Shown piece after piece: positions 2,012 through 63,128 of a stretch of DNA of 64,000 nt (its first letter is position 1; every line of letters starts with the position of its first letter). The stretch lies in IMG/VR virus record IMGVR_UViG_2687453424_000001; one strand, written 5' to 3'. Made by a program: the position numbers and the translations under genes. The notes under the pieces were generated by a model that was given only the letters and a program-made list of their open reading frames with translations, was not told where the DNA came from and did not search any database. Source of the stretch: a virus (Duplodnaviria; Heunggongvirae; Uroviricota; Caudoviricetes).

Positions 2012-2105
2012 GCCCAGAGAGAATATTCAGGCCAGTTATGCTTTCTGGCCTGTAACAAAGGACATTAAGTAAAGACAGATAAACGTAGACTAAAACGTGG
2101 TCGCA

Positions 2106-4252: not shown

Positions 4253-4259
4253 CCTTTAA

Positions 4260-4830: not shown

Positions 4831-5628
<798 letters not shown>

Positions 5629-5639
5629 CTAAATAAAAA

Positions 5640-11161: not shown

Positions 11162-11275
11162 AAATGAGACGTTGATCGGCACGTAAGAGGTTCCAACTTT
11201 CACCATAATGAAATAAGATCACTACCGGGCGTATTTTTTGAGTTATCGAGATTTTCAGGAGCTAAGGAAGCTAAA
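11162..11275 (+). promoter_or_regulatory. cat promoter and ribosome-binding site (Tn9 cassette)
   Basis: Sequence aaatgagacgttgatcggcacgtaagaggttccaactttcaccataatgaaataagatcactaccgggcg...aggaagctaaaATG is the standard upstream region of the Tn9/pACYC184 cat gene. Confidence 0.85.
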
Positions 11276-11935: not shown

Positions 11936-11947
11936 TTTTTTTAAGGC

Positions 11948-36200: not shown

Positions 36201-37506
36201 NNNNNNNNNNNNNNNNNNNNNNNNNNNNNNNNNNNNNNNNNNNNNNNNNNNNNNNNNNNNNNNNNNNNNNNNNNNNNNNNNNNNNNNNNNNNNNNNNNNN
36301 NNNNNNNNNNNNNNNNNNNNNNNNNNNNNNNNNNNNNNNNNNNNNNNNNNNNNNNNNNNNNNNNNNNNNNNNNNNNNNNNNNNNNNNNNNNNNNNNNNNN
36401 NNNNNNNNNNNNNNNNNNNNNNNNNNNNNNNNNNNNNNNNNNNNNNNNNNNNNNNNNNNNNNNNNNNNNNNNNNNNNNNNNNNNNNNNNNNNNNNNNNNN
36501 NNNNNNNNNNNNNNNNNNNNNNNNNNNNNNNNNNNNNNNNNNNNNNNNNNNNNNNNNNNNNNNNNNNNNNNNNNNNNNNNNNNNNNNNNNNNNNNNNNNN
36601 NNNNNNNNNNNNNNNNNNNNNNNNNNNNNNNNNNNNNNNNNNNNNNNNNNNNNNNNNNNNNNNNNNNNNNNNNNNNNNNNNNNNNNNNNNNNNNNNNNNN
36701 NNNNNNNNNNNNNNNNNNNNNNNNNNNNNNNNNNNNNNNNNNNNNNNNNNNNNNNNNNNNNNNNNNNNNNNNNNNNNNNNNNNNNNNNNNNNNNNNNNNN
36801 NNNNNNNNNNNNNNNNNNNNNNNNNNNNNNNNNNNNNNNNNNNNNNNNNNNNNNNNNNNNNNNNNNNNNNNNNNNNNNNNNNNNNNNNNNNNNNNNNNNN
36901 NNNNNNNNNNNNNNNNNNNNNNNNNNNNNNNNNNNNNNNNNNNNNNNNNNNNNNNNNNNNNNNNNNNNNNNNNNNNNNNNNNNNNNNNNNNNNNNNNNNN
37001 NNNNNNNNNNNNNNNNNNNNNNNNNNNNNNNNNNNNNNNNNNNNNNNNNNNNNNNNNNNNNNNNNNNNNNNNNNNNNNNNNNNNNNNNNNNNNNNNNNNN
37101 NNNNNNNNNNNNNNNNNNNNNNNNNNNNNNNNNNNNNNNNNNNNNNNNNNNNNNNNNNNNNNNNNNNNNNNNNNNNNNNNNNNNNNNNNNNNNNNNNNNN
37201 NNNNNNNNNNNNNNNNNNNNNNNNNNNNNNNNNNNNNNNNNNNNNNNNNNNNNNNNNNNNNNNNNNNNNNNNNNNNNNNNNNNNNNNNNNNNNNNNNNNN
37301 NNNNNNNNNNNNNNNNNNNNNNNNNNNNNNNNNNNNNNNNNNNNNNNNNNNNNNNNNNNNNNNNNNNNNNNNNNNNNNNNNNNNNNNNNNNNNNNNNNNN
37401 NNNNNNNNNNNNNNNNNNNNNNNNNNNNNNNNNNNNNNNNNNNNNNNNNNNNNNNNNNNNNNNNNNNNNNNNNNNNNNNNNNNNNNNNNNNNNNNNNNNN
37501 NNNNNN
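33222..37506. other. Run of N (gap or masked block)
   Basis: All n. Confidence 1.
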
Positions 37507-37621
37507 CCAATCGCTTCCTCCAATTGAAATCAACAACTAAAACAAACAAACAAACAAAAAATAGCCTTCATGAAATAAAACGGTGAATTGTTACGGTTTC
37601 TTTTTTCTAGTTTTCTTTGTA

Positions 37622-40600: not shown

Positions 40601-43600
40601 ACACTGATGGGGATGATGAATTGCTGGAGAACATGAGCATAGTTGGAAGTGACACTCAAGCCAAGTATCCACCATCATTCTTAGCTGACGTTGTTTCGTT
40701 GTCGAGTACTTTCCCCCCAATAGCCTCACTGCTAAACTCCCAGCTGTCTGTTTCCAATAAAATAGTGGTATGATTTTTTCCATCAGGAGATGTTATACAC
40801 ATGATAAAGACCACAATTAATGCATACAACTCATGTCTATAAAGTTGCAATTAGGTTTTTAGTGGATGCCTAATTATTTTTGATGGATTTGGAGGGCTTA
40901 AATTTGTTTTTGACTGTACCAAAGATGGGCCTATAAACAAATGCATAAATTTGTTGTAGGGTCAGTTGTCTTGACATCAACACCTTTCTTGTCTTTAATT
41001 TTGCCTGTATCATTTGTGCATTCCTGTTTGTTCTTGGTCCAACTTCTTTGTGGTTTATACTTTTCAATGCTTTTGTGATCTGTGGTGCTTATTTGCTTTG
41101 TTAACATGTCTATTTTGTTGAAGATACAGAAAACAGAAGGGGAGGAAGAAGTTGATGTTGTGGCTGGCCCTAATAATGCTGTTGCATATGCTGGCATGGC
41201 TCACGAAGCCGAACATGCTCTTTTGGCTACTGATTTACCAGTTTCTTCTGACATTGTTTTGCCTGGAAAGGTGAAGATTGATCTACCTCCTCCATCTGAT
41301 ATCCATGATGTGGGGTATCTTGAAAGTGAGATACCTGGCTTGGATTCTTCTGTTCGTACTGATGGATTGTCAGACACCCAAACTGCTTCTTCATTGGTCT
41401 CTACTGATCTAGAAGATGCTAGTCAAGAGCAAGTTACTAGTTTTGGTGGAAGGTCACCACTGCATGTGCTTCCATCAATTTCAACAGATAGGTCTGAGGA
41501 GCTTAGTCCAAAAGCAGCTGTTATGGATTCCAACAGCCTGATTTCCTCAACAGCAACTTCTGTTGTTTCGTCTTATATTGCCTTGCCCAAGATGTCAGCA
41601 CCTGTTGTCAATCTTTCTGATGATCAGAAGGATGATTTGCAAAAGTTGGCTTTTATACGTATCATTGAGGCATATAAGCAAATAGCTCTATCTGGAAGTT
41701 TGCAAGTTCACTTTTCTCTGCTTGCTTATCTAGGAGTCGAGGTTGTAGTTCTGACTTTTCAATGATGTTTATATCTTTCTACTGATAGCATCTAGTTGGG
41801 ATATATTTGTTATTATAATGTCCTGCTAGTTTTGACATTCTGTATTAAATATGTTTATGCCTTTCTTTTATCAGTTGCCGTCGGAGTTAGACCTACAGAA
41901 ACTGCTACGAGAACACGTTTTGTCAGATTATATAAATCACCAGGTAACTGGATATGCCAACCTCTATTCATGTTTGGATGTGCCTCAATTGTTGACTAGA
42001 CATGACTTTAATTACGACTTTATAGCTGAAACATGATGGAAGGAAATCAAATCCTATTGACATCATCTCTCTCTCTTTTCAATCTATCTTTCTATCTATC
42101 ACATGTATGATTTAGCATTTTTCAACATATGGTCTAATACACTGTTGGAGCAAACACTTCCTGACAGCGGAGACCATCATTATCTTTTAGTATCACCTCA
42201 ACCTTTCAAATCTGCTCATTTTTACTTGTTTTTGTTGTCAATTGATTTTTCAAAGGAATGCTTTGTTGTTCATTAAATTCATCCAAAATCCATGCTAGCT
42301 GACAATAGTTGTTGGATGGCTCAGGGACACGAGTTGACATTGCGTGTCCTCTACAGGTTATTTGGCGAGGCAGAAGAGGAAAGCGATTTCTTCTCATGTA
42401 CAACTGCTGCTTCTGCATATGAAACATTCCTTCTGGCTGTTGTATGTATTAGTTTTACTATGCCTATCTGGTTCTTCCCCTGAGAAGCCCATCTTTCTGA
42501 GGAAATTTCTGTAAATGCAGGCCGAAACTCTTAGGGACTCTTTTCCACCTTCAGACAAATCTTTAAGTAAACTTCTTGGTGAAGCTCCTCGCCTGCCAAA
42601 GTCAGTTTTGAATTTATTAGAGTGTTTGTGTTCTCCTGGAATCTCAGAGAAAGCTGAGAATGAGTCACAAAGCGGAGATAGAGTTACTCAAGGCCTCAGC
42701 ACTGTATGGAGCCTAATTCTACTGAGACCTCCCATTCGTGATGTGTGCTTGAAAATTGCTTTGAAGGTTTGTGATTTTTCTTGGATAATGGAGCTTAATT
42801 GAAGTTTCATTTCCTTATCTTCTGTTTGACTTTTATTTTCTCTTTACCTCTTAAAGAGTGCAGTTCATCACTTGGAGGAAGTCCGAATGAAAGCAATACG
42901 TCTGGTAATTGTTCACAACTTGCCATTTAAGTAATTAGTGGCTGCTTTCTGTGATCGATTTTATGATTGAGGATGTCTTTCATTTTATAGGTAGCAAATA
43001 AGCTTTATCCTTTATCATCCATTGCTCAACAAATAGAAGATTTTGCAAGGGAAATGCTGCTCTCTGTAGTAAATGGCGATGGTATAGAAAGAACAGATGC
43101 TGAAGGATCCATTACTGAACCACAAAAGGTAACCATATCAGACCTTTGTGATTTAAAATGCTTTTGTCTCCAACTTGATTATGTACGGTTTGTTTTGCAT
43201 AATTCAGAAAATTTTTTATATCTGGTTGAAATTGGAATACTGTGATGTTGTTTTTGAACACTATCTGGTTGTGAGAACATTGAAGGAGTATATGTTCACA
43301 CAAATATATGGATGTATAGTTATGTATGTGTGTTTTCCTATATATGGAGTTAATTACATGAAACTATTACCAGGTGCAAAAAAATGTCAGGAGCTACTAG
43401 TTGTCTTAGAATTTCCTGTGTTGTATATGCATTTTCCTTTTTTATCTTTTCTCTTCTTTTTTGGAGGGCTGGGGGTGTTGGGTGTGGGGAAGGGAAAGGA
43501 AGGAAGAGGTAAATTGTCTTTGCTGTCCGGTGCGTGATTAAATTTTAGCTATTTTCTTTGCTGGTTAGTAGTCAAGCCTGGACATTATCTATCATTGGAC

Positions 43601-46600
43601 ATGTCACCATGCCAGTGATCCTTAAAAGTATCCTCAGGCTAAATCAGAAATGCGTGTACTCCATCTTTTAAGAATTGGAATGTTACATTCAGGTCATGCT
43701 CTTCTAACAACTTTGAGTTTTCGTTAGGCAATGATGTGTATTGACCATTTTCTTTTCTTAAAAAAAAAGGATTTATGTCAACCCAGGAATATAAATTATT
43801 TTATTTCCTCAGCTTCCTTGGTTAAGAAAAATGCTTAAATACTTGACAGGCTGGCAGGGTAGTGATTCAAAATTGACTAGAAACTGTGTCATTTAAGTAA
43901 AGCTTTTTAGTTACCTCTTGAGAGTTATGTAATGACTTCAGTTGTATGTCTTGTTGATTTTCTTAGTTGAGTTCTATTTGCAACTTTTAACAGGAATCTG
44001 ATTCAGAAAAGCCATCAAATGAGCATCAGTCAATGAGTTCCATTGGTAAAGACATCTCTGCTGATGTTCATCAGTCAGAAACATCTCAGAGTGTGTCATC
44101 CCTTTCTGTTCCTGAGGCTCAACAGAGCATGTCACTTTATTTTGCTCTGTGTACAAAGGTGTTACCCCTTCTTTTTTATTTTGAGTGCTTGATTCTTGAG
44201 ATTACTATTTTTGAGTGCCTGTTTCTTCATAATCCTCTCAAGGAATTAATATTTTGCTGTTATTATTCAACAGAAGCACTCTCTCTTTCGCCAAATATTT
44301 GTTATCTACAAGAGTGCATCAAAGGCAGTTAAGCAGGTTTGGTTAATGCATTTTGGAATCTTATTTTAGGAATTTATTAAAATCCTTGGTATTATTGCTT
44401 TGTTTTTCTTCTTATTAGTTGGGCAATGCAGGCAATCCATCGTCATATTCCCATACTAGTTCGTACCATGGGCTCGTCATCTGACCTCCTTGAAATTATT
44501 TCAGATCCTCCTAGTGGAAGTGAGAGTCTTCTTATGCAGGTTGTGAAAGTTAAGTAACCTATATAGTTTTCTGAGAACCAATCAGAAGTTCAAAAGTTCT
44601 CTAACTGTTTGCCTTTTCTGTTATCCACCTTCCCTCCCGTCATGCCAGGTTTTGCATACACTGACAGATGGGACAGTTCCTTCTGCAGAATTAATGTTCA
44701 CCATTAAGAAGTTATTTGATTCAAAACTAAAGGTACGAGTAAATTGTCTTTTGTTAAGAACCGGAATGCAGTGAGGATATTGGCTAATGCGCGGTTGATT
44801 CGGATTGGTGACAGGATGTTGAAATTCTAATTCCAGTATTGCCATTCCTACCAAGAGATGAGGTTTTTCTCCATTCTCTGATAATTTCCTTTCTCATTGT
44901 CTACGAGCATGGTTGTTTTGCAGAAGAATGTTGAGTTGTTCAACTGTCTCGTGTAAATGGATTATATCTGTGAGGAATGCGACTCTTGTCTGGACAAGAC
45001 AACATATTGCAATATAAGTTTCAAGTCCATGCTAAAAGGAGATCCTTGGTCCATTCATTTCTTATTTTGTGGGTAAATTAGTTATATTTTGAGTTAGAAA
45101 TGAAAAATAAAAAATGAAAAGTATGTGGATATTCAAGAAAAAAGGGATTTATAATGCTGACAGCACAATTCTTTTTTACTAGAATGTAAGGCTAAGCCAT
45201 ATTAAATACAGATGAAAGTTTGGGCTCAGGGATGCCCTCACTACAAAAGATTTCATGTCAAGACGATACATCACAGCTTATTGCTTTGATATCATAAACG
45301 AGTCTTAACCTTTGCTAGATTCCCTGTCCTTTACCCTCCTTTCATTAATTTAGAATCAACACAAAAATGCGATATTAGAGTTTAAAACATATGTTATTTA
45401 TGAGAAAGTGCATGGTAGTATAATATTGTCAGTATGGCAACTAGAAGTTGTTAATGGCATTAGCAGCAGTGGTTCCATTGTGTCTCTTCCATATATTTGA
45501 TTAAAAAATTTGGATAATATTGTTGTATATGTTGACTTTTGGTGAAGACAATTGTTTAAGGAAGAAAGCAAATTCTTGTTCATGCTCTTTCTTCATGCTT
45601 TTGAGAATTTCATTCTCAACAAATTTATTCTGTTCACTTTCTGCTTGATTATGCCTAGTTTAAATTTTTAATAAATAGCTTCCCCAACTTTCTCTTGTTT
45701 AAGAGGTGCTCTTTGAATGCATTGTATTGGTTTTCATTGGTGTTACCTTAACTTTCTCTGCTGCATTTGTTTTAATAGTTTGTGTTTTTAGGTTTTGCTG
45801 CTCTTTCCACATCTTGTAAATCTTCCGCTGGATAAGTTCCAAGCTGCACTTACCCGGTTGCTACAGGTATCTTTTTTGCCCCATGGCCTCTTACCCAAAA
45901 GTTAAATTCCTCTATTATAGCATTGTTTCTTCTAGCTGTCATTTCTAGGAATCTTAATGTATGGTTGCTTGCATTCTACAGCTGCATCTCTTTTTCATTT
46001 TGTAGCTTTCTAAATTCACTTATAAGGAAATATTTCACTAGGAATATTTTCAGTAGCATATGTAATAATATCATGCTGTATTGGCATTGTCCGTGTTATA
46101 TTTTGATCAGGAAAACACAACCTGCTCGTTTTTCAGCTGCATGTTCTGTTTCATTGCTAATTGGACTCTTTGTACCTAGGGATCTTCTCATTCTGCTCCA
46201 GCGCTCTCTCCAGCCGAAGTGTTAATCGCTATCCATGGTATTGATCCTGAAAGAGATGGAATTCCCTTAAAGAAGGTGTGTTTCCTCCTCAATCTAGACT
46301 CCCCACCCCCGCCTCCCCCTCTCCCCCTTTTTTTAAACTTCTTAATGTTTAGAAATTCACATCTCAGTAACATTTTTAAGCTGCAATCAGGTCACAGATG
46401 CATGTAATGCTTGTTTTGAGCAACGGCAGATATTCACCCAGCAAGTTCTTGCGAAGGTCTTAAATCAATTGGTATGTATTATACCACTTCTTTATGTTTT
46501 TATCACCAAAATTTACTAGTCTCTGGCTGAATTCACAGTTGATGATTGTTGTTTCCTATAGGTTGAGCAAATTCCTCTTCCTTTGTTGTTTATGCGTACA

Positions 46601-47669
46601 GTATTGCAAGCCATTGGTGCTTTTCCTGCACTGGTAAGGAAACACCATTTATCTTTGCTTACTTGAAGGGTACTATAGATAATTGTAGTTATTTATTGCA
46701 GAATTTAAAAAGCTTTCTAGGTAATTTATATTGTCTGCCAGGTAGCTTAGCAATGGCCAAAATGGTTTCATGTCCAATAATTATAGATTTATAGTTCAAT
46801 TTTTTTTTATTTAAAAAAAGGATACTCCACTGTCTTCTCTCTCATTTCATCTGAGGAAGAGGGTAAAACCTGTTTAAAGAATTTAACATGATTAGAAAAA
46901 ATATCCATGAGTCATTGATGACCGGATCACTCAAAATGTTGTAGGTGGACTTTATAATGGAGATCCTTTCTCGTCTTGTAAGCAAGCAGGTGACTACTTT
47001 TATCACAACAAGCTGAACCTTCTTTTCTTTAGGTTTCATGTTTATATGTCATTAAATTAATTGCTTATTGCAGATATGGAAGTATCCAAAGTTGTGGGTA
47101 GGATTTTTGAAATGTGCATTATTGACAAAGCCTCAATCTTTCAGCGTGTTGCTTCAGGTGCATGTTTCTTTTATTAACTATTTTAAAATGCATTTTTGAT
47201 CTCCGAATGTGAAGTTTGCATTTTAGAAGCAAAGCCTGTTCTTTCTGTTTGTAATTGTATGATTCTTGTCTTTCAGCTACCTCCACCGCAGCTGGAAAAT
47301 GCACTGAATAGAACTGCAGCACTCAAAGCTCCTTTGGTTGCTCATGCTAGCCAACAGAATATCCGAACTTCACTTCCAAGGTTCATATGAAGAATGATTT
47401 TTTTTCTCTGATTGGATATAAAAGTCTTCAATATCTACACTCTATGAATAGCTCCTTGTCTATTTCTGATCACCATCTCCCACTCCTCTTTCTTTATACT
47501 TTCGGCATTTGCCATTTCCAGGTCTATACTGGCAGTTTTGGGACTTTCTCTGGACTCTCAGAACTCTAGTCAGGCACAAACAAGTCAGGCTCACACCGGA
47601 GATACTAGTAACTCAGACAAGGATGCAGTGGCAGTGGAGAAATCTAAAGAATCATCTAGTGCTAGCTGA
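37622..47669 (+). CDS. ESP4: Symplekin homolog (mRNA 3'-end processing scaffold; Arabidopsis ESP4-like), about 26 exons, roughly 1300 aa
   Basis: Start [38 protein letters not shown]...VRKLATE, then [45 protein letters not shown]... (HEAT/ARM-like symplekin N-domain). Many short exons with GT-AG introns, two large Ser-rich exons (about 40200-40770 and 41125-41740), and a terminal exon ending ...[10 protein letters not shown] with stop at 47667-47669. Approximate exon starts: 37622, 37938, 38407, 38574, 38790, 39350, 39943, 40200, 41125, 41875, 42320, 42520, 42858, 42992, 43995, 44271, 44430, 44645, 45790, 46175, 46390, 46560, 46947, 47080, 47277, 47522. Only the start and stop were checked base by base. 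Confidence 0.8.
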
Positions 47670-48090
47670 GGATCCAAAAACTCAATTTTGGAAAAGCATA
47701 ATCTGACATTGCTCTATAGCTGCCTGCCATGCATTGGATTCACAAGCTCCCAAGTCTGGACTTCCATGCAATAATGTATGCAAGAGGAATGGGAGTGTGG
47801 AAGGCGTAGAAGGCAGACAGTATTCTGTATCATAGCCTTTGATATCTGACACATTCTTATAAATGCCATTGGTAGAGAAGTGCTGGCTGCCTATGCTTAA
47901 AGTATTGATTCGGCAAGAATTTCAGAGATTTTTAGTGAACATGTACAACAGGTTTGATTGCAATTTTGATCAGTTGAAGTAATGCACATAAGGATTTGTA
48001 ACATTGCAAGGAGCTACATCTCAATGTATATACTTTGGTTCACTCCAATTTTTTTAGCATTTCTCATATCATCCTTTGGTGAATTAGCAT

Positions 48091-48110
48091 TCTCTCTCTC
48101 TCTCTCTCTC
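48091..48110. repeat. (TC)10 microsatellite
   Basis: tctctctctctctctctctc in the intergenic region between the symplekin and DnaJ genes. Confidence 0.95.
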
Positions 48111-49363
48111 TTAACGCTTATTAATTTAAAGTTGTACTTGTAATTACATTAACCATGACTGACCTCAAGCTGGTTTACAGCCTCTGATTAAGTGGAAAGT
48201 AATGCAGGCATATGCCTACCCCTTGCCTTTCACTCTGGTCGCGAAAGCTTACTCCATCTTTTCCTGGTGAGCGGATCAGTGACGCAATTTGTAGCCATCA
48301 GTGCAAAACCCAATCTGGTATGCTAACACCAGCCAACATTCTACTTCTCCAGGATCGAAAGGGGAGTGGAATCCGCTCTCAGCGGAACCCAGATGATAAT
48401 TATTGTCAAGTAAGAAACTCTCTATTGGTATTGCATCTATAGTTTAACTGATTGTTAATTAAAAAACAGGGTCTTGCATAACATTTCAGAATCCAATGAC
48501 AGCATGTATTCGTAGAATCTTACACAGGAATCAGATTGGCCTCAATTCTAGGAAAACTACCCCATCAAAACTAGTTTTTTTATCACCAGAAGTAACTAAA
48601 ATTCAACAGCCATGAGTGAGTATGACAGCCTACCTGATTATCATGTGGCTGTCTGGTGTGTCTACTAGATAATGGAAAAACATGGTATTCCCTTTTGGTC
48701 CAAGCAAAGAAACTGTTGTAAGTGTCGAGGGATTGTAATAAAAAAAGAAACCGACAAAGATAGATAGATAGATCCTTCACATGTTCCTAGCATTCCCTGT
48801 CGTTTCACATGGTGTCACTTAACCAAAAACTAGATTTAGCTTTGAACCGTATCCTAACATGTCCAAAGCGAATTCCAACCCACTGTTTGCTATCGAAAGA
48901 CATAACTTTTTAATCTGCAAAGACATGTTTCTGGAAAATTTGTACATTTCAATATTTGGCTTTTGAAAAAATTAAGAAATTTATTTGAAATGAATTTTTT
49001 TGGTATTAAAAAGTATTGAATAGTCATATCATAAAAAGAAAATTTTAAATTTTAATGTAAAATATATCAAAATAAAATTTGTTTGTCTTAATTTTTTGGG
49101 CCAACAACCTCGAAAATTAGTTTGGGCTAGAGAGAATAGAAATAAGCTTCTGACAAATTTGATAATGGGCCTAAGCCTAACCTTCTTTGCCTCTTAAGTT
49201 ACCACCTTACTCTCCCCCATCAATGGCTTTCCATATAATAAACTCAGGCGATTTATCTTGGTGGAGGAAAGAGTTGAAGTAGTGACAGAAAGAAAAGGAA
49301 AGAAAATTCAAAGAGAGAAAAGAAAAATCTTCCAGCAGCGGAAAGAGGAAAGGAATTGGAAGA

Positions 49364-51953
49364 ATGGGCGTTGATTATTACAAGATTCTTCAGGTCGACC
49401 GGAATGCAAAAGATGAAGATTTGAAGAAAGCTTATCGGAAACTGGCCATGAAGTGGCATCCCGATAAAAACCCTAAGAACAAGAAAGATGCCGAAGCCAA
49501 ATTTAAGCAAATCTCCGAGGCTTACGATGTAAATTTTATTTTATTTGATTTTTTTGGTTATTTATTTATTTTTTTAATGGAATTTTCAATTAATTGTAGG
49601 TTTTGAGTGATCCCCAAAAGCGTGCGGTTTATGATCAATACGGAGAAGAAGGATTAAAGGGCCACATGCCACCCCCGGGGGCGGGCGGGTTTCCCGGAGG
49701 GGCGGACGGGGGTCCGACGATGTTCCGGTTCAATACTCGGAGCCCCGATGATATTTTCTCGGAAATTTTCGGGTTTTCGAGTCCGTTTGGGGGGATGGGT
49801 GATATGGGCGGGTCACGTGCTGGGGCGTCGGGTTTCCCCAGGGGCATGTTTGGGGAAGATATTTTCGCCTCGTTGAGGGGCGGAGCTGGAGAGGGTTCTA
49901 CGACTATGCCCCGAAAAGGACCCGCTATTGAACGAACATTGCCTTGCAGCTTGGAGGATTTGTATAAAGGGACTACCAAGAAGATGAAGATTTCTAGAGA
50001 TGTTTCTGATGGTATCGGGTAATCTTTTATTTCTATTTTTTTCTTTTTAAAGTTAATTTAGTTGGGTAATGCTTAGTTTTGCTATTTTGATTTTACTAGT
50101 ATGTGGATAAGTGATTTTCAGCTGGATTTATCTGTAGATCTAAGTTCAATTTATTAGCTTTGAGCATAACTTATAATTTAATGTAGAACATCAATAATTG
50201 AATCCTGAAAGGTTTTTTAGGCATAAGACAAGGAATAATTAACATTTTCAAGCAGCGGATATCTTAGCTTGAGTCGCAAAAGATGTTTACAGAGGTTGCC
50301 GAGTTTGACTTTTTGCGAAAAATGGTACTTGTTAGGATAATATGATTCTATTATTTAAAATGATTGGTTGTTTCCCCAAGTGATGACAAAGTTGCATGAC
50401 AGTTAGATTTGATCCAAAAAGTTGTGATTGTTGAGATCTTATGAGCATTATTTTACATTGTTATTCAATTGAGTCTTTTCTGATCTGCGGTCTTAATGTT
50501 CGAGACAGATTTAGATTGGTCAGCATATTTCAGCAAACAAGCAACGCTATTAGAATAATAAACCAGAAATAAACCGGTCGTGTAAGTGTATATTTTGGAG
50601 AATCATAGCTAGGGGCATTTAACTCTGTTAGGCAAACATAATTTAAATTTTATTAGATTTTCTTATCTGGAAAGGAATCTTATGGGGATTTCTTTGCATG
50701 AAGGTATACTCTTTCTCTGTGTTTGATCCTTCTTCCTTATATAGCAAAAAGACTTTCTTTTTCATTCCTCTTTCTCTTTTTGTTTTTCGGTTTTGGTTCA
50801 CTGTCTTTTTAACTTATGGTCAGTTTTTTAATTTCCTGAGTAATAGAGATACTTCTATGGTATTATATAATCTGTTTTGATTATATGATTATTTCCTATT
50901 ATCCTCAACAAAGCTTCTTTCACAATTTGTTCTTTTTCCATAAAGATTAGATTGATCATGGAGATTATTTGTCCATCTATGTGTTTGTGACCAACTTTGG
51001 GAATTTCTTGATGCTTACTCAAGATTCATTTTTTAAGTTCTCTTTTTTTGTATTTTGCTTTATGCCAAATTTGTAAATTTGGCTTCAGCTGATGATAATT
51101 GCTGCATGTTGAAAATAATAGTGGCTTTGTGACGGTATGTCCCTGTCATCAGTTAGCCTTGCTGTTTTGCTTCAGTTTAACCAGATTATCCACAAGCTGG
51201 TAGTTTTTAGATCAGCACACTAGTTGGAATTTCCTAGAACACAACTTTATATCAGCTTAATTTACCATGTGAATTCAACTTGTCGAGTCCGAAATTTGCA
51301 TTCTACTGAATGCTTATATGCTTAAAACTGTGAGTGCTTACAATTTTGCACTTTGTATATTTATTAAGACTTACGTAGTTAAATTATGGCGAGAGAAGTT
51401 CCTAGTTCTAGCAATAATATGTAGTTTTGGGAAATCTTAAAACCGTGATCTTTTACAGTTAACTTTTTTATTCCTTTATTTTCAAGAAAATACTTTTTTA
51501 TCCCTTTACAGGAGACCTACTACAGTGGAGGAAATTCTTACTATTGAGATTAAGCCAGGGTGGAAAAAAGGTACAAAAATCACTTTTCCAGAGAAGGGAA
51601 ACGAGCAACGAGGGGTTATTCCTTCTGACCTTGTCTTCATCATTGACGAGAAGCCTCACGGTGTGTTCAAGAGGGATGGCAATGATCTTGTTGTTACTCA
51701 GAAGATATCTCTAGTGGAAGCTCTTACTGGTTATACAGCACAGCTGACAACGCTTGATGGACGGAATCTGACGGTCCCTATTAACAACGTCATTAGTCCA
51801 ACCTATGAAGAGGTTGTTAAAGGTGAGGGAATGCCCATTCCCAAGGAACCTTCTAAGAAAGGAAATTTGAGAATTAAATTCAGCATCAAGTTCCCTACCA
51901 AGCTTACGACAGAGCAGAAAACTGGCCTGAAGCGGTTAATGTCATCTCCCTAG
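49364..51953 (+). CDS. DnaJ/Hsp40 subfamily B co-chaperone (J-domain protein), 3 exons, 341 aa
   Basis: Exons 49364-49528, 49600-50018, 51512-51953 (1026 nt, in frame). J-domain [37 protein letters not shown] with HPD motif, Gly/Phe-rich linker ([12 protein letters not shown]...FGGMGDMGG), and C-terminal substrate-binding domain ([26 protein letters not shown]...). Confidence 0.88.
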
Positions 51954-53407: not shown

Positions 53408-55583
53408 ATGGAAATGGCTTCCGCTGCTCGAACCGTCGAGGAGATCTTCAAAGATTACTCTGCTAGAAGAACGGCCATCGTTCGTGCTTTAACATACGGT
53501 GAAATTTTATTTCCATTCTTTTTTCTCCTCTTTTTGGTTTTTTTCTGTTTCGATTTTTACGTCTTTGTAGCTGTTTAACGGTGCCGTTTTCTTTGTCTTT
53601 CTCTCAGATGTGGATGAATTTTATGGACTCTGCGATCCAGGTATTCTCTGATTGGAGATCCGAAAACCTCTTCTTTCTTTTTTTTTTTAAATTTTATTTT
53701 CAATTTTATTTCTATTTTTGCATGTAAATCCGAATTTCATAGTTTTATTTTATTTCATTTTTACATGCAATCAGATTTCGGTTCTTAATTGAATTTAGAA
53801 ATTATCGTTCCTCGTTTAATAATGAAGTTACTGAATTCCAGAATTGCAATTCCTTAGGAAATTCAAGTTGTCTGCTTTTATGCAGAAGAAGCTTTCCCTC
53901 TTAGTTTGGCAGAGATCAAACAGAGGTTTATATATAAAAAAAGGTTTTGTTCTTTGCTTTTTGTTTGGTCTCAGAAAAAGAGAATTTATGCCTGTATGGA
54001 CATCCGAATGAAAGCTGGGAAGTGACTCTGCCAGCAGAGGAAGTTCCACCAGAGCTTCCTGAGCCGGCACTTGGCATTAACTTTGCAAGAGATGGAATGA
54101 ATCGAAAAGATTGGTTGTCCTTGGTCGCGGTGCATAGTGATTCGTGGTTGATTTCTGTGGCTTTCTATCTCGGTGCGCGTCTTAACCGCAATGAAAGGTA
54201 CTGTCTTTTTCCTTCTGTTTTTGCTTCATGTGTAGAAGGATCATGTTGAAGCAGTTTTAAGTTCATTGAAAATCGGGTTGATTCATCAAGTTTCGTTTAG
54301 TTTCTTTTGTAAATTTTGGTATCAACTTTGATTATTATCAGGGAATGCTTCCCTTTGTTTTTCCCGGCGCAATATATTTGTTGGTCTAGTGGTGGTTCAG
54401 ACTTGAACTGTTTTTCTTCAGTTGGATGTTAGAAATGACTATGCAAGATTACCAATGCAAATACAGAAGTAGTGAATGCATCAGGCTTTTTCTTGTGGTG
54501 CTTGGCAGAGTAAAAACTTGATATATGCATATGCATAGGTCTCATGATATTGTGTTCGTATTTTGCTCGTTTATGGAATACATTTATAATTGTTTATTAT
54601 CATGTTTCATTCCAGGAAACGCCTATATAGCATGATGAATGATCTGCCCACTGTCTTTGAGGTTGTAACTGAAAGGAAGCCAGTTAAAGACAAACCAAGC
54701 ATGGATAGTGGGAGCAAATCCCGGGGCAGCACAAAGGTTAGACAGATCAAATCTATTGTGATTTTTATTATTATTTGAGCTTGGACAATTTAATCATAAA
54801 CTTTTACGCTTAGATTCTCTTCTATCACTGAGAAAGGGAGAAGGGGGGTGGTATGACTGAGGGAAACCTTTTTTTTTTTTGGAAAGTTAAGCATTTCATT
54901 ACTGAAACAGGGAATAAAAAGTTCTGTGGAACATTACAAAGGCAGCACCTAATTTTGGATTTTGTTATGGACATAACATAACAACCAGAAATCAAGGCCT
55001 CAGATACAGAAAAGCAGAACAGCAGCATCATCAACCCACAGACTCATCCTAATTTTTGTTCACAAAATCTATACACAAAAACGTATCAATATCATCATCA
55101 AACCCTGTACAACTATTGAAATATACTTGCTATCATAATGCTCAAGCCACCCCATCCATTAATCATGTAAAGTGCCCAGTTGTATCGTAATGAATGCACA
55201 GTTTGATATGATTAAGCCTGCAGAGCAGGCCTAATATTTCCTACACGAAAGAATGAATTTCTTGTACTTAACCTGTTCAGGTATTTTTTTTTTTTTTGTG
55301 TTAGTCACTGACTTGATTCTTTGCTTTATAGAGATCAATTGAAGGACAAGCCAAAAGCAATCCTAAGGTTGCGGATGAGATTTTTGAGGAAGATGAAGAT
55401 GAACACAGTGAAACACTCTGCGGCAGCTGCGGTGGAAATTACAATGCAGATGAGTTTTGGATTGGCTGTGATGTTTGTGAGAGGTGGTTCCATGGGAAGT
55501 GTGTGAAGATAACACCTGCTAAAGCTGAGAGCATTAAGCAATACAAATGCCCATCTTGCAGCTTGAAGAGGGGCAGGCAGTGA
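53408..55583 (+). CDS. Alfin-like PHD-finger protein (H3K4me3 reader), 5 exons, 239 aa
   Basis: Exons 53408-53498, 53608-53640, 53975-54197, 54616-54736, 55332-55583 (720 nt, in frame). N-terminal Alfin domain ([58 protein letters not shown]...) and C-terminal PHD finger ([47 protein letters not shown]). Confidence 0.88.
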
Positions 55584-56897
55584 CAGTCACTAAAATGACA
55601 AGAAGAGAACAGAGACACTTCAATGGCTGACAAAGTAGTATAGCAATATTCCTGCCTTTGGTAATGTAATGAAATTTTTCATCATGTCTGTTCATAATAG
55701 ATGCTTCGGAACAGATGGAAGTTCTACTTCTCCCAGATACCTTTGTTTAAATGTCAACTCATATGTTAGGATTTGTTTAACGTCTGAAAAATTTGTCAAT
55801 AACATTTGCCCATGTATGCTAGTCTTTGTCTTTTCTTCCTCCCACAAGGTGAAGGGTAAAATTCACTCAATACGGGACATTCTCAAATGATACCAGGTAG
55901 TGAAAAGATTAGATGACGCAAGGATGGATGGAAATCCTCTGCCCCGGTAATGTGACCTGTGTCACGGATTATGTTCTTTCGTCTAAGTATGCGATAGTCT
56001 GTGCGACACATGAGTGGAGGCTTCTACGTAAGTCAGTTAATACTCGGTTATATCTGTTTCAACAATAATAATAACAATAAATCAGACTAAGAAAATTTAC
56101 ATCAAAATTAAAAGGCATATCGAATGTCATATATGCAATCACTTAGTCATAATAAGAAAAAATATTTCGTTAATATGAAATTAATTACAAAGAGATCGAG
56201 ACATGCCATTGTCGGGTCACGAGGGCAGTCTGAGATGGATTGCTCATACTTTTACCAGTGAGGCAACCCAACAATCTGTCGATTGCTCACCTCTTATAAA
56301 GAGTTTACGAGATTTTACAAGTATTCTACCAATAACCATTACAATGTTTGAAATAAACATTCCTTTTTTAAAAGGTCTTTTTCTTTAAAAATTTAACAAG
56401 GATTTGTATCACCACGAGACATTACATTGTTTGAAAAAGGGATATTTTTCTTACATATACAAAAAGCTCAATCTAATAGACAACTCTACCCTGTTATAGT
56501 CTAGTACAAAGTTAGCTCGTGACACCCTGCCTCTTTGCCCCGTGAACAAGGGGATCGAACCAAGGTCATGTTCATGGTAAAATAGTTATTTTTTCTTTCT
56601 GTCTTTGGACCTTGGAGATCCTCGCCAAAAGAGTTTGAACAAGGAACAGAACCCTTTGAATGTGAATCAATTTGGACACTAGGAAACCTCAGCCAAATTC
56701 CGACAATTAGAAGACACAATAAGGACAGCTTAAGGCATCCATTAATCCTATCAATCAATTCTTAGTGCTTATCGCCACCTTAAAAATGTTTTCCTTCGTT
56801 TTCATCTGTTTTTGTCTCTCCGTCCCCCACCTCTCTATATTTCCCCTCCTACGACGGGGCGAATGCTTGTGCTACAATCGAGCCATTTCTCTCCACA

Positions 56898-58150
56898 ATG
56901 CGTCGTCCCAGTCGATCTGATGGCTTGGCCAAAGAACGCCTGAGATGGACTCAAGAGCTGCATGATCGATTTGAAGATGCTGTTAATCAGCTTGGAGGTC
57001 CAGATAGTAAGTTTCTGATAGCTCGGAAACAATTTTTCCATTCATGCTTGTTCTTTGGTTTAATGTTTGTGTAAATTTTGGTTTGCCAGGGGCGACGCCA
57101 AAGGGTATCCTGAAGGCTATGGGGGTTGATGGACTGACCATTTACCATGTCAAAAGCCACCTGCAGGTTAGCTCCGTCCCCAACACTTACATATATGTAT
57201 CTTCTTTCCTGTAAATCAAAATGCCTATGGATTCATGTTTTAGTTTTATTTTTGCAGAAATACAGGATCTTAAAGTTTGTTCCAGAAACAAATACAAGTA
57301 AGTTGAAAGAAGTGAACCTTCAGTCTGATCACTCACATTGAAGTTAAGAAAAGAAAGAACTGATTGAAAAGACGGTGACCCTTTGATTCTAACTCTCTAA
57401 CTTTGATAACCATGTTCTTTTAACTGCAGAATGCAAGTTTGAGAGGAGAGATATATCAGAAATACTGCCTAATTTCGGTACAACATCGTGAGTTATCGTT
57501 TCTTTTCTGTTTTGATAGGGAATTATTGTATAGTACGAGTTTATTTTCTTATTGTGTCATTGTTGTGATTGAAAAAATCATTGAAGAGGGGCTCAGCTTA
57601 ATGAAGCCTTGCAAATGCATAAGGAAGCAGAAAGAAAGCAAGGGGATCATCAGCTCGAGGTAAACATACGGAAAATTAGATTCTCTTCGTTTTAGTTTTT
57701 CCACAAAGAAGAAAGGTATAGCCCTTCAGGGATGTAGCTAGTTTTAACAATTTCTAGAGGGGTTTATGTTTGAAGGCTCAAAGGAACTTGAAGATTAAGA
57801 TTGAAGCTCAGGTAATATTCCTTGAGAGACTTGCAGGCCAACATGGAAACCGAGCTACCCCAACAAAAGCTACCAAGCCATTCTCTCCCACATCACTGCC
57901 TTCACTCTGTGAGGAGTCTGAGTCGACTGCAAAAGATGGTTTCGAAACCGACCCCGAGGCTGACAGAAATGAGATAGAATCAGGAGAAAGAGTTCAAGCA
58001 ATGTATGCATTCGAATCATGGGACCAATATGATCATCAAGACATGGTTCTTAACAGGGAAGAAAGGGTTTCTTACCTTGCTAATGATATCAGCTTTCCCT
58101 GGAATGTCCCAGTTTGCTCATCATCCCCCCTGGTGCCTAGTTTTTTGTGA
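56898..58150 (+). CDS. MYB-CC type (GARP/PHR1-like) MYB-related transcription factor, 6 exons, about 243 aa; gene model provisional
   Basis: Exons 56898-57006, 57090-57166, 57258-57297, 57430-57487, 57587-57659, 57776-58150 (732 nt, in frame). MYB/SHAQKYF-class domain [51 protein letters not shown], then a coiled-coil-like segment LNEALQMHKEAERKQGDHQLEAQRNLKIKIEAQ. Internal splice choices were made by frame consistency only. Confidence 0.6.
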
Positions 58151-60300
58151 CTTTTGCCACAACTTCCATGTACAATTGATTTTGTAAAACAAAGCAATAA
58201 AACCATATCATGGACACAAAATTGATTGCTTTCAGGGTTGTCAAATTAAACACTTGGAAGGAGCATCTAACTTAATCTTGTAAATCATGAAAGCAATCAA
58301 GAACTTCCTATCACAAGTATTCATATCTAAATAAATTTGTACCATCCTAGCAATGCTGCTTGTGTAATAAAAAGAGGGTGATCTGATATATTGTTACTGG
58401 CTTTTCATGTAAGCTTGTAAAGCATCAATTCTATTGCAATTTTCTATAAAAAAAACAAAGAAAAATTGTATTGCTAAGAACAAAATAAATTTATTAGATA
58501 TATGACGTAAAATTACAAATTCATTGAATGAGTCTGTTTCAATTTTAAGATTTGTCCTGGGATTCTTTTTGTCCTCCTTGAGCTTGAAACTTCCTTGGTT
58601 TTATTCTCTTCATCGGGTCAAGCAGACACAAACAAACAACAAACATGAGCACAGCCACCAGCCATGCCAATGGCCATCGTGGCATATTGTCCATTGGGCT
58701 TAAATGATAGGTGACCACTGACTTGGGTAAAACTGCAAGCGTGGAATGGGCTGATTTTGGTCCATAGCTGGTGTCGTGACAACACAGTCAAAAGTTTGAG
58801 GCTAAGCAAGCAATGTGTAACACATGCCTGCCGACGGGTAGTTACATTGTATCGGCCTTCTGTTCATAGCCAAACCAAACCACATTAATTCAACATTGTA
58901 GTGCTGTAAGTTAAAAGCAAATTAAGACAAGAAGCTGCCAGTTAGGCATGGTCTTAGATATTATCGGGATAACGGGAGATCAGTGAATGAACCCTAACAT
59001 TTTCCAAATAATGGAAGAGATATATAAGCACGTGCCCTTTTCCATAAACATACTAAAGGAAGCAGTGAATGAATTTGTCTAACAGGGTACTAGCATAGAC
59101 AAGTAAGTCTACAACACTAGGTATAAATTAAAGTATTCTGACTGATCCTCCTCACAACATAGCTAAAGTTTGCCTTTTATGAAATTAATATACCGTCGTG
59201 CTATATATATATATATAGTACCTTATTATAATAAACTTTACTGCAGTACCCATTCCGCAGTGATCAGTGAATGCTTTGACAAATCGATTTATTAATAGCT
59301 ATTTATGTGTATCTCTGCCTACCACAACCACATAAAGAAAAATAAAGAGACAACTTGGGGGAAAGTTTGAAAGCTTTTAAAAAACGTGCCATGGTGGTAC
59401 TTGGAAATGGGGTGTTAAATGTGGAACGAGTCAAAAAGGCCAAAACATAAAGGACTTGTAACGTAATGGACATGACATTAATACAAAGAGGAAAATTTGA
59501 GTAAGGCAAAAGGACTACTGTAAAGGGCAAAAGCGAGAGAGAAGGAACAGCAACGTATATAGTACTTTTCTGTTTATGCTTTGCCCATCCTAGCAAGATC
59601 GAAAGTGGAGACGACCTGGGTGACCTTTTAGATATATGCGGTGTGTTTGCTGACTCATGGAAAATGTTTCAAAGCATAAGAGCCACAATTATTTTTGTAC
59701 CCTCTGCTATAGCACTGGTCAAAGCTGAGACCATCGAAAGAGTTAGGTTTTAATTCGTACGGATTCGAAATTGATTTACGTATGTTTACGTCTAAATTCG
59801 TTATTTTTTAGTATAAATATATTATATATACATATTTATCATGAAATCAAATATCGGTATATATCTCTTGATTGTATTGAATTTTATCCACGTGGAGCTG
59901 TCGTTAACGTTTTAAAATATCCAAGGCAACTAATCTGGATGGTATTTAATTTGTTTAAAAATTGACATCCCCAATTTCGAAGAAAGAGCGATGTTGTCGC
60001 CTGTTGTACTGCCCCAATGGTGGTTCACATTGTCATTATTATATGCTAATGGACATCTTGGGTTGGTTGTTTTCGATATACTACTTTAAGCAAAAGCTGT
60101 ATATAGCCCATGTGATGGAAATTCATATAAAGAAAATTAATAGGTGTGAGGGAAAACATGGAACTCATTGCAGCTTCATTTTCCAACTAAATTCAAACCA
60201 AACCAAACCACAATTATTCAGTCCAAATTATCAAGTGGGGGCAGCATTTTTCTTGGTATCTTCTCGTGGCAATTCATTGTCTGCCTAACTTGAAAAATCT

Positions 60301-60328
60301 GAAAAAGAAAGAAAGAAAGAAAGAAAGA
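60301..60328. repeat. (GAAA)n / (AAAG)n microsatellite
   Basis: gaaaaagaaagaaagaaagaaagaaaga, intergenic. Confidence 0.9.
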
Positions 60329-61216
60329 CGTTTAGCTGTCTTTATTCAATCCAAATCTTAAACCCAGGAAGAAGCAGCTAGCTTACTAGCTTTATGCATG
60401 TGCAAGAGACTGCATGCTTCTTGAGTGTACTCGTATACTAAAGGAATAGAGAGAAAGAATTGTAGGGTGAGAAGTTGGTGAAATGTTCTAATCATATACG
60501 TAATTATCAATTTGTTTCTTAGATTAGTCCAGGCAACTACTCCAATTTTACATGCCAAGGCGATTTTTCTTTAAAAAAGACAATGGGATATTTATCTATA
60601 TTATGATTCTAGAAAGGAAAGAATTTATTACAAGAACTATAAATTAAGGAATAGATCTCATATAAACAAAGATATTATAAAAATGTAAAGAAATTCTTTC
60701 TGTTCATCTGCGATTGAGATTGTCTCTTTAAAAATGTATTTGAGAGATAAGTCAAAAATTCTGTTATTGTAACTTTTAATATGATTAGGGATTTTGCAAA
60801 CATTTTTAATATAAAGAAATAAGAGGTGACAATTATCTCACTAGGTTGGTCATTTGATAGATTCTATTAATTTATAACACAAGTGAGCAAAGGCAGCCAT
60901 CACAGATTGGTTTTCTGCTACCAAAATTGACACAGACAACAAGTTTTATCCACATCCACTTTATCACTTAGGCTCCTTTTGACTCAGGCAACAATTTTGA
61001 ATAAAAGGGCATCAAGAATTTATAATATGATATGACACAAATTAATATTGCTTCTTGAAATGCTTGCATACAGTAATCTTTTCACATGATCATGTAAAGC
61101 TTCAAATTAGCTGATTATAGTACTTTCAGAAGCTCTATATTTAGGTTGGAGAGGCTTGGGAGTATTATTTAAATGTAAGCGATTGGTACACATCACACAA
61201 GTACTATGTATGGAGA

Positions 61217-63128
61217 CTATCTATTGGATTTCAAGGATTCAACTTGCGCTTTGCCACATGGACCCTTGGTCCTGATGTAAAGTCTGTACTCATCAAACGT
61301 CATGGGATTATACAGAGCCGGCCGGTCCTTACTCACTAGCTCCTTGGCTGGTTCGATGAGTAAATCACTCTTTGGGTTGTAGAAGAAAGCTAGGGAGACT
61401 CGATCTTTTGCTGAATTCACGATTACCCTGTGTTCAACACTCTTGTAAATTCCATTGCTCAGCACCTGAACGTGTTTCATGAAACCTATGATCAGCTTTC
61501 TTTTGCTCTTGAAACATGGGGCAATAATAATACAGAAGAAATTGGAGTGACAATCCTAGAGAGAAAGATCAGAAACCTGAAGCTGGTCTCCAACGTTGAC
61601 AATGAAAGCATTAGGAACAGGCTTCACGGTGATCCACTTGCCATTCTTACAAACTTGGAGTCCAGCTACGTCGTGATCAGGCAGGAGAATGGTCATGGCA
61701 CCAGGGTCTGAGTGTGAGGAAAGACCTAGGGTAAGGTCAGGCTGAGGACACTTTGGATAGAAGTTGACCCTTAAACAGGCACCGATGTCTTCTCCACCGA
61801 AGGCTTTCTGCAGGTAATCTTCTGGCAGTCCAAGATTTGTTGACATCGCCTTCAGCAGCCTTCCACACAGTTTTACAACTTCAGCACCATATTCTGCTAC
61901 CAGTTCCCTGCATCCAGATGTGAACAGCTAATGATTAGTAAATTCTGCTACCAGTTCCCTGCATGTTTAAGGTTAAAGCTCTCTCCATTCGTACATGTTA
62001 CATAAAACAGTAGAAAACAAATACCCTTTTCATTTTCAACAAAGTTGGGTCTACTATTTTGGTCGGGGATTAATATTTTAACCTGAATTTCTTTCTTTTT
62101 CCTTCCTTTTTCTGTTGTGAATTGTAAGCAAACTTGAAAACGACCAACACTCCTTTGCATGTGAAGTTGCAACTAATTAACTTTTGGTAAGGTTAGGAAA
62201 GATTCGAGGGTCAAAACCATCTCCATTGGATCGATGCAGGCCGTGCGATTTGGATATGGATTTGCTTTTTAATCATTCCATTTTGACTTCATGAAATCGT
62301 TTCCCTACCCTTAGAATTTTTGTCTTCTTTAATTATTGCCTTCAAAAGAGGAGATCAAAGTTGATCAATTAACCTCAGTCAATATGGGGGTGTTTATATC
62401 GTGAGACATCAGTTGCAACCCGGGCCAAATCTAAGATTATTGGTCAGTTGACCGAATCCCACTGTCCTAGTTTTTGTTCTCTTGGCAGATGTAAGAAAAG
62501 AGAAAGAATCTCTTTTCGTGCAGAGAGACAGGAACAAAAAGAAAACATCAACGTAAATAAAACATCATGGTATCACGTTTTGTAAAAAGATAAAATAAAC
62601 AATGAGGCAGGCAGGGGGTGCAGACCTGCAAGATGACGGTTGTGCAGGCCACTTGCTTTGATTCCTCGACGAAACCGGCATGAAGTGAAGAAAAAAGTAA
62701 TCGCTCCAATCCAGAATCGCTCCTTTCTCTACTCCCAAGCGACTGCCGTACCCTTCATAGGTACTTGGCTCGTTGGCATACCCTTGCTTCACTTCAAGCG
62801 GCAGGCTGAAGAATCGACGCCACACCTCTCGGATGCGCCTCATCAGCTCGTGGCTAACCCCATGGTTCACCGCCTGGAAGAAACCCCAGTCCCGGCACGT
62901 GCTGGAGATGCATCTCAAGGTCTCCTCCCGCAGGGCTAGGTCTTTCCCGAACAGGTTCTGGAGATCAACGACAGGAATGTCAACATGTTCTTCGATTTTG
63001 GAACATGTTTTCAGGCCAGGCCTGTCGGTTAGCGGCTTGATGTATCGCTCTGGAATGGCACGTATCCCACTGTCAGACAGAGACTGAACTCGAACCACCG
63101 GCTCAGGCCAACTCTGGAGACAATTCAT
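61217..63128 (-). CDS. 2-oxoglutarate/Fe(II)-dependent dioxygenase, JOX-like (jasmonate-induced oxygenase / At5g05600-type), 3 exons, 360 aa
   Basis: Exons 62626-63128, 61577-61907, 61217-61465 (1083 nt, in frame). N-terminus MNCLQSWPEPVVRVQSLSDSGIRAIPERYIKP (DIOX_N); Fe-binding HxD...H (HSDPGAMTILLPD ... YKSVEHRV) and the 2OG-binding RVS motif. The WPEPVVRVQSL...YIKP N-terminus is distinctive for the JOX/At5g05600 clade as I recall it. Confidence 0.85.

Follow-up and report, generated by a model that had tools for sequence, protein, structure and literature searches.

A putative paralogous sister block of the Arabidopsis Alfin-like/JOX gene pairs in Theobroma cacao

The stretch of DNA analyzed here, referred to as the window, comprises the 64,000 nucleotides of IMG/VR record IMGVR_UViG_2687453424_000001, filed as a virus, and is Theobroma cacao DNA. 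It carries an Alfin-like (AL) PHD gene and a 2-oxoglutarate (2OG)/Fe(II) oxygenase gene of the JOX type, which are convergent, with their stop codons 5,633 bp apart, and enclose a small MYB-CC gene (Table 1). The same two gene families are paired at two loci of Arabidopsis, and it is very probable that the cacao and Arabidopsis pairs are paralogous (ohnologous) blocks derived from one older pair that was duplicated, their common arrangement being inherited gene order. As judged from the sequences of both partners, the cacao genes are not orthologs of AtAL1/2 and AtJOX1/2, but belong to a predicted paralogous sister block, which would make the linkage older than simple orthology would show.

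Two lineages of linked AL and JOX genes

According to the literature, AL1 and AL2 correspond to AT5G05610 and AT3G11200, and JOX1, JOX2, JOX3, and JOX4 correspond to At3g11180, At5g05600, At3g55970, and At2g38240, respectively. An earlier note on this DNA had stated that JOX1 adjoins AL2 and that JOX2 adjoins AL1, and both adjacencies have been read directly at the genomic loci, where both pairs are convergent. On chromosome 3, a gene for an FAD7-type desaturase is followed by JOX1 (+) and, 1.7 kb on, by a gene for a 246-aa Alfin protein (-). On chromosome 5, the order is a tomosyn-like WD40/synaptobrevin gene, an FAD8-type desaturase gene, PRAI, JOX2 (+), and, 2.7 kb on, a gene for a 241-aa Alfin protein (-). 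A GDSL lipase gene and a tubulin gene are also found in the flanks of the Arabidopsis pairs. These pairs resemble that of cacao in that members of the same two families adjoin, or nearly so, with their 3' ends facing each other, in that the Alfin proteins are of the AL1/AL2 subfamily, and in that the oxygenases share with the cacao protein all the residues that contact jasmonic acid (JA) or take part in catalysis. They differ in the lineage of both partners (lineage B, see below), in their flanks (FAD7/8 and tomosyn-like genes, as opposed to the DnaJ and symplekin genes of cacao), in the gap between AL and JOX, which is 5.6 kb in cacao, and in the absence of a MYB-CC gene from the interval. 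The ortholog of the MYB gene that the earlier note sought in the corresponding Arabidopsis interval did not appear, as tblastn with MYB-CC gave no match at E<=1 in either of the two AL/JOX loci.

The relationships of the oxygenases have been studied in a neighbour-joining tree of 78 proteins, gathered in searches seeded with cacao JOX and AtJOX2 (for each protein search, the best 120 matches were listed). One side of this tree, lineage A, comprises the proteins of cacao, Prunus, Coffea, Vitis (009768), Populus (025244), and Jatropha (25005), and holds core eudicots only. The other side, lineage B, comprises AtJOX1, AtJOX2, and proteins of Brassica and Tarenaya, together with second JOX copies from Jatropha (01256), Manihot, Populus, Juglans, Citrus, Pistacia, Mangifera, Morus, Nyssa, and four Malvaceae. 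Lineage A is separated from the rest with a bootstrap support of 99%, and many species are represented on both sides. The identity of AtJOX2 to B-type proteins is 68-70% (70.4% to that of Durio), versus 61-63% to A-type proteins (61.5% to that of cacao). AtJOX3 and AtJOX4 were not among the 120 matches listed in either JOX search.

Rooted on Amborella, the AL tree agrees with the species tree and places the ANA-grade angiosperms, magnoliids, monocots, and Ranunculales outside a core-eudicot split into two lineages. Lineage A includes the proteins of cacao, Prunus, Jatropha (25007), and Populus (025243), with Vitis 009765 at its base, and lineage B includes AtAL1, AtAL2, Jatropha 01257, Lonicera 034839, Vitis 016371, and the proteins of Manihot, Pistacia, and Diplodiscus (Malvaceae). 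In 98% of the replicates, the cacao-type ALs fall on one side and AtAL1, AtAL2, and the B-type ALs on the other. AtAL2 is 83-84.5% identical to the B-type ALs of rosids versus 78-80% to the A-type ones, and the one alignment column that qualifies as diagnostic of the two lineages (Gly in cacao, Asn in AtAL1/2) agrees with the tree. Linked AL and JOX partners always fall in the same lineage, which argues that the pair was duplicated as a block.

Conservation, flanking genes, and the ancestral block

The adjacency of AL and JOX is widespread among eudicots. The Prunus locus consists of two DnaJ genes, AL (+), MYB-CC (+), and an unannotated JOX gene (-) located by tblastn 5.3 kb from AL, while that of the asterid Coffea reads JOX (+), MYB-CC (-), AL (-). 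Both trios contain the same three genes as cacao, in the same order and relative strands and with AL and JOX of lineage A, and that of Prunus also agrees with cacao in the DnaJ gene upstream of AL. In the early-diverging eudicot Tetracentron, the 3' half of an AL gene (-) lies 2 kb beyond JOX (+), and a MYB gene is absent. AL and JOX are convergent at every locus read (cacao, Prunus, Coffea, Tetracentron, and twice in Arabidopsis).

The AL gene beside JOX in Tetracentron sinense (L007 14116-14588) is annotated as a 134-aa PHD protein. At this locus, tblastn matched AL residues 116-240 only, and the N-terminal Alfin exons were not found in its remaining 7.5 kb; this AL may be truncated or may have a very long intron, like the AL genes of Acorus and Nymphaea (~9 kb).

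In Populus, Vitis, Jatropha, Lonicera, and Escallonia, adjacency was judged from the proximity of locus tags. Those of lineage A are POTOM_025243 (AL) and 025244 (JOX) in Populus tomentosa, JCGZ_25007 and 25005 in Jatropha, and PVL29_009765 and 009768 in Vitis rotundifolia, whereas consecutive tags of lineage B have been found in Jatropha (JCGZ_01257/01256) and Lonicera (LguiA_034839/034838). The tags of Escallonia, RJ639_003623 and 003627, are close together, and in Stylosanthes both genes lie on one 45.6-kb contig. Indirect evidence of the same neighbourhood comes from the fusion of Myb, Alfin, and PHD domains in one gene model of Sesamum, and from an Alfin protein of Prunus (armeniaca) recorded as a DnaJ C-terminal protein. 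Given that, of ~29,000 genes, a handful are JOX genes, the chance that a JOX lies within two genes of a given AL is roughly estimated at ~1e-3 and, since the same convergent arrangement nevertheless recurs in every readable genome, chance adjacency is not plausible. The linkage of AL and JOX is ancient, dating back at least to the eudicot stem, and the ancient linked block proposed in the earlier note is thus upheld by the presence of the pair in rosids, in the asterid Coffea, and in Tetracentron.

The genes flanking the pair differ between the two blocks. Flanks were examined up to 10 kb, with incomplete gene calls at the fetched loci. Neither the cacao window nor the 10 kb past JOX showed any similarity to FAD7/8 or to the tomosyn-like gene, the Arabidopsis AL/JOX loci lacked DnaJ, symplekin, and MYB genes, and the flanks of the two blocks gave no cross-matches.

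In the monocot Typha angustifolia, one locus (L012 1-22610) contains symplekin (-), AL (+), FAD7/8 (-), and the tomosyn-like gene (-). Its FAD7/8 and tomosyn-like genes match FAD8 and the tomosyn-like neighbour of FAD8 on Arabidopsis chromosome 5, and its symplekin gene matches the cacao window. By these matches, the locus joins A-type and B-type flanks around a single AL, as expected of an unduplicated ancestor. In another monocot, Acorus, AL (+) is followed by a MYB-CC gene (+). The orthogroup signature of this gene, GAQLNEALqMQKEVQ, is common to the positional orthologs in Prunus, Coffea, and Acorus, and reads SGAQINEALRMQKEVQ in Acorus and GAQLNEALQMQKEVQKRLSDQLE in Coffea. Its presence in Prunus and Coffea, and beside AL in Acorus, makes the MYB-CC gene an ancestral member of the block. 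The linkage of AL with MYB-CC, symplekin, and FAD7/8 predates the monocot-eudicot split, and JOX as a member of the block is demonstrated for eudicots only.

These arrangements could be derived as follows. An ancestral eudicot chromosome would have carried AL and JOX with their 3' ends facing, very probably with MYB-CC between them, with symplekin and DnaJ beyond AL, and with FAD7/8 and the tomosyn-like gene beyond JOX, in the order symplekin, DnaJ, AL>, MYB-CC>, <JOX, <FAD7/8, <tomosyn-like. The whole block would then have been copied by a duplication common to core eudicots. The gamma hexaploidy would fit this event, because core eudicots alone make up JOX lineage A, and Ranunculales, magnoliids, and monocots branch off outside the AL split. 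Copy A would have kept PDX1, symplekin, DnaJ, AL, MYB-CC, and JOX and lost the right flank, cacao being almost unfractionated, while copy B, deprived of the MYB gene and the left flank, would have retained the tomosyn-like gene, FAD7/8, JOX, and AL. Finally, the alpha duplication of Arabidopsis would have doubled copy B, giving rise to FAD7-JOX1-AL2 and FAD8-(PAI2)-JOX2-AL1. What the data show are the identities of the genes, their adjacency in several genomes, the agreement of the two trees on lineages A and B, and the difference in flanks; we infer the gamma timing, the ancestral order, and the losses, as we do the biochemical activities mentioned below. The two blocks resemble gamma/alpha ohnolog blocks in the existence of two multi-gene copies in many core eudicots, in the concordant trees of the partners, in the complementary loss of flanks, and in an outgroup locus, that of Typha, which bears both flanks.

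A counterpart of copy A may also be recognizable in Arabidopsis. According to the literature, At5g01390 encodes a DNAJ protein, At5g01400 ESP4/symplekin, and At5g01410 PDX1.3, while PDX1.1 is At2g38230. The run of PDX1, symplekin, and DnaJ in cacao thus comprises the same families as three consecutive Arabidopsis Genome Initiative (AGI) codes, At5g01410, At5g01400, and At5g01390. PDX1.1 and JOX4 (At2g38240) have consecutive codes as well, as expected if the genes between PDX1 and JOX had been deleted. This is just the pattern that an A-type block would leave after complementary fractionation. This likeness, read from the AGI numbering in papers, suggests as a lead that the window is the unfractionated counterpart of both segments. 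JOX4 and JOX3, instead of JOX1 and JOX2, may be the Arabidopsis relatives of cacao JOX, and the A-type AL and the MYB-CC gene may have been lost from Arabidopsis.

Several observations weigh against a descent of the cacao and Arabidopsis pairs from one duplicated block. Regarding the trees, all of them are neighbour-joining trees only; the AL alignment is short and conserved, and bootstraps for full AL clades are low (6% for clade B). The JOX tree is unrooted and was built without monocot, Amborella, or AtJOX3/4 sequences, so that the position of its root is deduced, and Ranunculus is weakly nested inside its B side. Regarding the loci, the one in Typha lacks JOX and MYB, the gap between AL and FAD being 1.7 kb, and its symplekin gene has the opposite strand relative to AL from that of cacao. 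No JOX was found beside AL at the monocot and ANA-grade loci examined (Typha, Acorus, and Nymphaea); AL had no partner within 10 kb in Nymphaea, and the Acorus locus ends ~2.4 kb past the last MYB-CC match, the remainder of that MYB-CC gene not having been located. As for lineage B, adjacency outside Brassicaceae was read from consecutive locus tags, and the partner was not found within 10 kb in the flanks of the B-type AL of Jatropha and the B-type JOX of Durio.

Some of these points would be accommodated if the A and B blocks had arisen from a duplication other than gamma (an older one, angiosperm-wide, or a segmental one), or if AL and JOX had been joined independently twice. Such origins, for which the unrooted JOX tree, the weak placement of Ranunculus on its B side, and the low supports of the AL clades leave room, might also be read from the A-like flank (MYB) of Acorus and the B-like flank (FAD) of Typha. 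They are nonetheless unlikely, as the Amborella-rooted AL tree puts both of these monocots, the magnoliids, and the Ranunculales outside the A/B split, JOX lineage A holds core eudicots only, and Typha joins both flanks around one AL. In addition, AL and JOX are not likely to have been brought together twice in one and the same orientation, and the pair is already present in Tetracentron.

It seems quite unlikely that the adjacency has been kept by functional or regulatory coupling, through a chromatin domain or convergent transcription, rather than by inertia. The spacing between AL and JOX varies from 1.7 to 7.7 kb, an unrelated gene lies between them in block A, the partners appear to be more than 10 kb apart or separated in the B-type loci of Durio and Jatropha, and there is no JOX beside AL in Typha. 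As a rule, cacao is collinear with other eudicots over long stretches, which also counts against selection on the pair, and a literature search found the AL and JOX families together only in an unrelated context. These data outweigh the fact that the pair, always 3' to 3', has survived in the two copies of core eudicots as well as in the two alpha copies of Arabidopsis, even though neighbours are more often lost than retained together in every duplicate. It is very improbable that the AL chromatin reader and the JA-inactivating enzyme share a regulatory domain, or interact via convergent transcription, and have been kept together by selection, which would account for the intact survival of the pair; if this were true, they would form a conserved functional gene pair of a kind rare in plants, connecting chromatin state with hormone turnover.

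Very unlikely, too, is the direct orthology implied by the earlier note, in which the cacao pair would be the one-to-one counterpart of AL1/JOX2 and AL2/JOX1 and Arabidopsis would have lost the MYB gene of the interval: the two families and their convergent orientation are the same, AtJOX2 is the best match among solved structures, and cacao AL is named 'Alfin-like 1' in GenBank and has 90%-cluster mates named ALFIN-LIKE 1 or 2 in RefSeq, but the trees place the Arabidopsis pairs in the sister lineage (AtJOX1/2 beside second copies of the same species across the 99% JOX split, AtAL1/2 with B-type ALs in 98% of replicates), the cacao and Arabidopsis loci have no flanks in common within the stretches compared, and Malvaceae hold a separate B-type JOX and B-type AL.

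The three genes of the cacao block

The gene models of AL, MYB-CC, and JOX were built by hand from the raw sequence, and all their introns are GT-AG. According to these models, the coordinates, the strands, the 5.6-kb spacing, and the small intervening MYB-CC gene had been given correctly to the base in the earlier note. In reverse orientation, a stretch of chromosome record CM001883.1, to which EOY07187 belongs, agrees with 12.8 kb of the window at 99.9%, and the GenBank annotation shows genes of equal length and in equal order to those of the models.

The translation of JOX is 100% identical to EOY07187 and contains the Pfam domains DIOX_N (2.6e-29) and 2OG-FeII_Oxy (4.4e-37). In a PDB search, its best match was AtJOX2 (6LSV; 2e-150, 504 bits), versus 266 bits for ANS, ~200 for ACO, and 143 for GA3ox. 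The JA-contact residues of JOX2 are R225, R350, R354, F157, F317, F346, Y135, L142, L241, P247, and I353 (PMC13385383). Cacao JOX has the same residue at each of these 11 positions and at those of the Fe ligands HxD...H and the 2OG-binding RxS (16/16), its H233, D235, H290, R300, and S302 aligning with H244, D246, H301, R311, and S313 of AtJOX2. The scores and residues assign the cacao oxygenase to the JOX clade (DOXC clade 46) and not to the ANS/FLS/F3H or ACO clades, in keeping with the placement already made in the earlier note, and the protein is most likely a JA hydroxylase predicted to inactivate this hormone. The functional names among the best 120 matches listed for it are mostly JOX1-4 or the AGI codes of JOX1/JOX2, a minority bearing legacy names of the ANS/SRG1 type or unrelated ones. 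The RefSeq name of the cacao protein, 'leucoanthocyanidin dioxygenase', should accordingly read as a JOX-clade enzyme, which is of value for annotation. Similar misnaming affects JOX homologs of Hibiscus syriacus, recorded as 'Alfin-like 1 isoform 1' and 'calcium-dependent protein kinase 13-like'.

In intron 1 of JOX (window 61891-61962, minus strand), the 21-nt sequence of the acceptor site, GCAGGGAACTGGTAGCAGAAT, is repeated 51 bp upstream. Splicing at the upstream copy would give ...ELVAEFTNH followed by a stop codon, and for this reason that copy is read as a decoy acceptor that arose by a small tandem duplication.

The AL translation exactly matches EOY07191, 'Alfin-like 1' of T. cacao in GenBank, and contains an Alfin domain (Pfam 5e-69, 230 bits) and a PHD finger (39.6 bits). 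The C4HC3 zinc ligands of the latter, read from the translation, are intact (C-x2-C-x12-C-x2-C-x4-H-x2-C-x15-C-x2-C). In PDB searches, the N-terminal domain matched AL2 (256 bits) better than AL7 (219 bits), and the PHD finger matched AL1 (100 bits) better than AL3 (96 bits) and the next PHD entry, 1WE9 (91 bits). Among the best 120 matches listed, the only AL numbers found in names are AL1 and AL2. These comparisons place the protein in the AL1/AL2 subfamily, closer to AL1/AL2 than to AL3-AL7, and its family membership makes it most likely an H3K4me3-reading PHD protein. Alfin proteins of Stylosanthes, Ranunculus, Castilleja, and Orobanche are misnamed 'phytoene dehydrogenase AL-1' in public records.

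The MYB-CC translation is an exact match of EOY07189, 'Myb-like HTH transcriptional regulator', and a near-identical RefSeq protein of the same 90% cluster is named 'PHL7 isoform X1'. It contains a single Myb/SANT domain of the SHLQKYR type (Pfam Myb_DNA-binding, 2e-10, 40.9 bits), whose HVKSHLQKYR motif spans the exon 2/3 junction. The coiled coil appears less well preserved, as Myb_CC_LHEQLE scores 26.2 bits versus a curated cut-off of 29.1 bits. In Prunus and Coffea, by contrast, where the motif was located by tblastn with a consensus peptide, it is recognizable and above this threshold. At the LHEQLE position, cacao has GDHQLE, Coffea LSDQLE, and Prunus LSDQNE. The coiled-coil segment of cacao (window 57587-57850) reads ALQMHKEAERKQGDHQLE, and that of the Coffea positional ortholog ALQMQKEVQKRLSDQLE. 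From these sequences, the coiled coil of the cacao protein may be degenerate and its dimerisation weakened.

Other contents of the window and significance of the block

Table 1. Genes located in the window, in order of position
Feature	Position	Strand	Structure	Basis or remark
RING (zf-C3HC4_3) gene	20205-23300	+	N-terminus Ser/Ala-rich	Pfam
PDX1 (pyridoxal-phosphate synthase subunit, SOR/SNZ)	29172-30101	+	Single exon	Pfam SOR_SNZ 4e-113 on open reading frame (ORF) 29112-30098
Rhodanese-like gene	31800-32640	-		Pfam
Symplekin (ESP4-like)	37574-48400, ends approximate	+	Multi-exon; 5' of DnaJ	tblastn with Typha symplekin ORFs
DnaJ (type I/II, DnaJ + DnaJ_C)	49364-51950, ends approximate	+	Directly 5' of AL	Pfam
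Alfin-like PHD gene (AL)	53408-55583	+	5 exons: 53408-53498, 53608-53640, 53975-54197, 54616-54736, 55332-55583; 239 aa	ATG at 53408, TGA ends at 55583
Small MYB-CC gene (GARP, SHLQKYR-type)	56898-58150	+	6 coding exons: 56898-57006, 57090-57166, 57258-57297, 57430-57487, 57587-57659, 57776-58150; 243 aa	
Hypothetical gene between MYB-CC and JOX	58615-59252, approximate (from L001 13877-14514)	-	81 aa	GenBank call; probably spurious
JOX/JAO-clade 2OG/Fe(II) oxygenase (JOX)	61217-63128	-	3 exons: 63128-62626, 61907-61577, 61465-61217; 360 aa	ATG at 63128, stop at 61217

Upstream of AL, the exon ORFs of the DnaJ gene, annotated as encoding 341 aa, match Pfam DnaJ (7e-22) and DnaJ_C (2e-34). The Typha symplekin ORFs, which contain the Pfam domains SYMPK_PTA1_N and Symplekin_C, map collinearly onto window 37927-42781, and a Pfam scan of the single symplekin exon ORFs of the window gave no match. 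The 81-aa gene called in GenBank between MYB-CC and JOX is without a Pfam match or a counterpart at the loci of other species, and its region holds short ORFs only.

The window also contains five runs of N, each of 1.8-4.4 kb (1-1845, 6811-11161, 13379-17520, 24743-28502, and 33222-37506), which add up to 18,383 nucleotides (29%) and within which genes may be hidden or interrupted. Positions 1846-6810 (4,965 bp) match a mini-F bacterial artificial chromosome/fosmid backbone (sopA, sopB/parB, repE) with 100% identity, and positions 11162-11947 are 100% identical to catA1, which encodes a chloramphenicol acetyltransferase. Set apart and bordered by N runs ~40 kb upstream of the AL-JOX block, both stretches look like vector contamination of the assembly.

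The block consists of three already annotated cacao genes and represents ordinary conserved microsynteny. Most likely, AL, the GARP factor MYB-CC, and JOX act independently and have stayed together through slow rearrangement in a conservative genome, and the pair raises no new biological question unless its adjacency is functionally constrained. The distinction between the two lineages matters for annotation, as the functions of AtJOX1/2 and AtAL1/2 should not be assigned to the cacao genes on an assumption of orthology. Above all, the cacao and Arabidopsis pairs would offer a worked example of an old plant gene neighbourhood that was duplicated as a whole and whose copies then underwent complementary fractionation.

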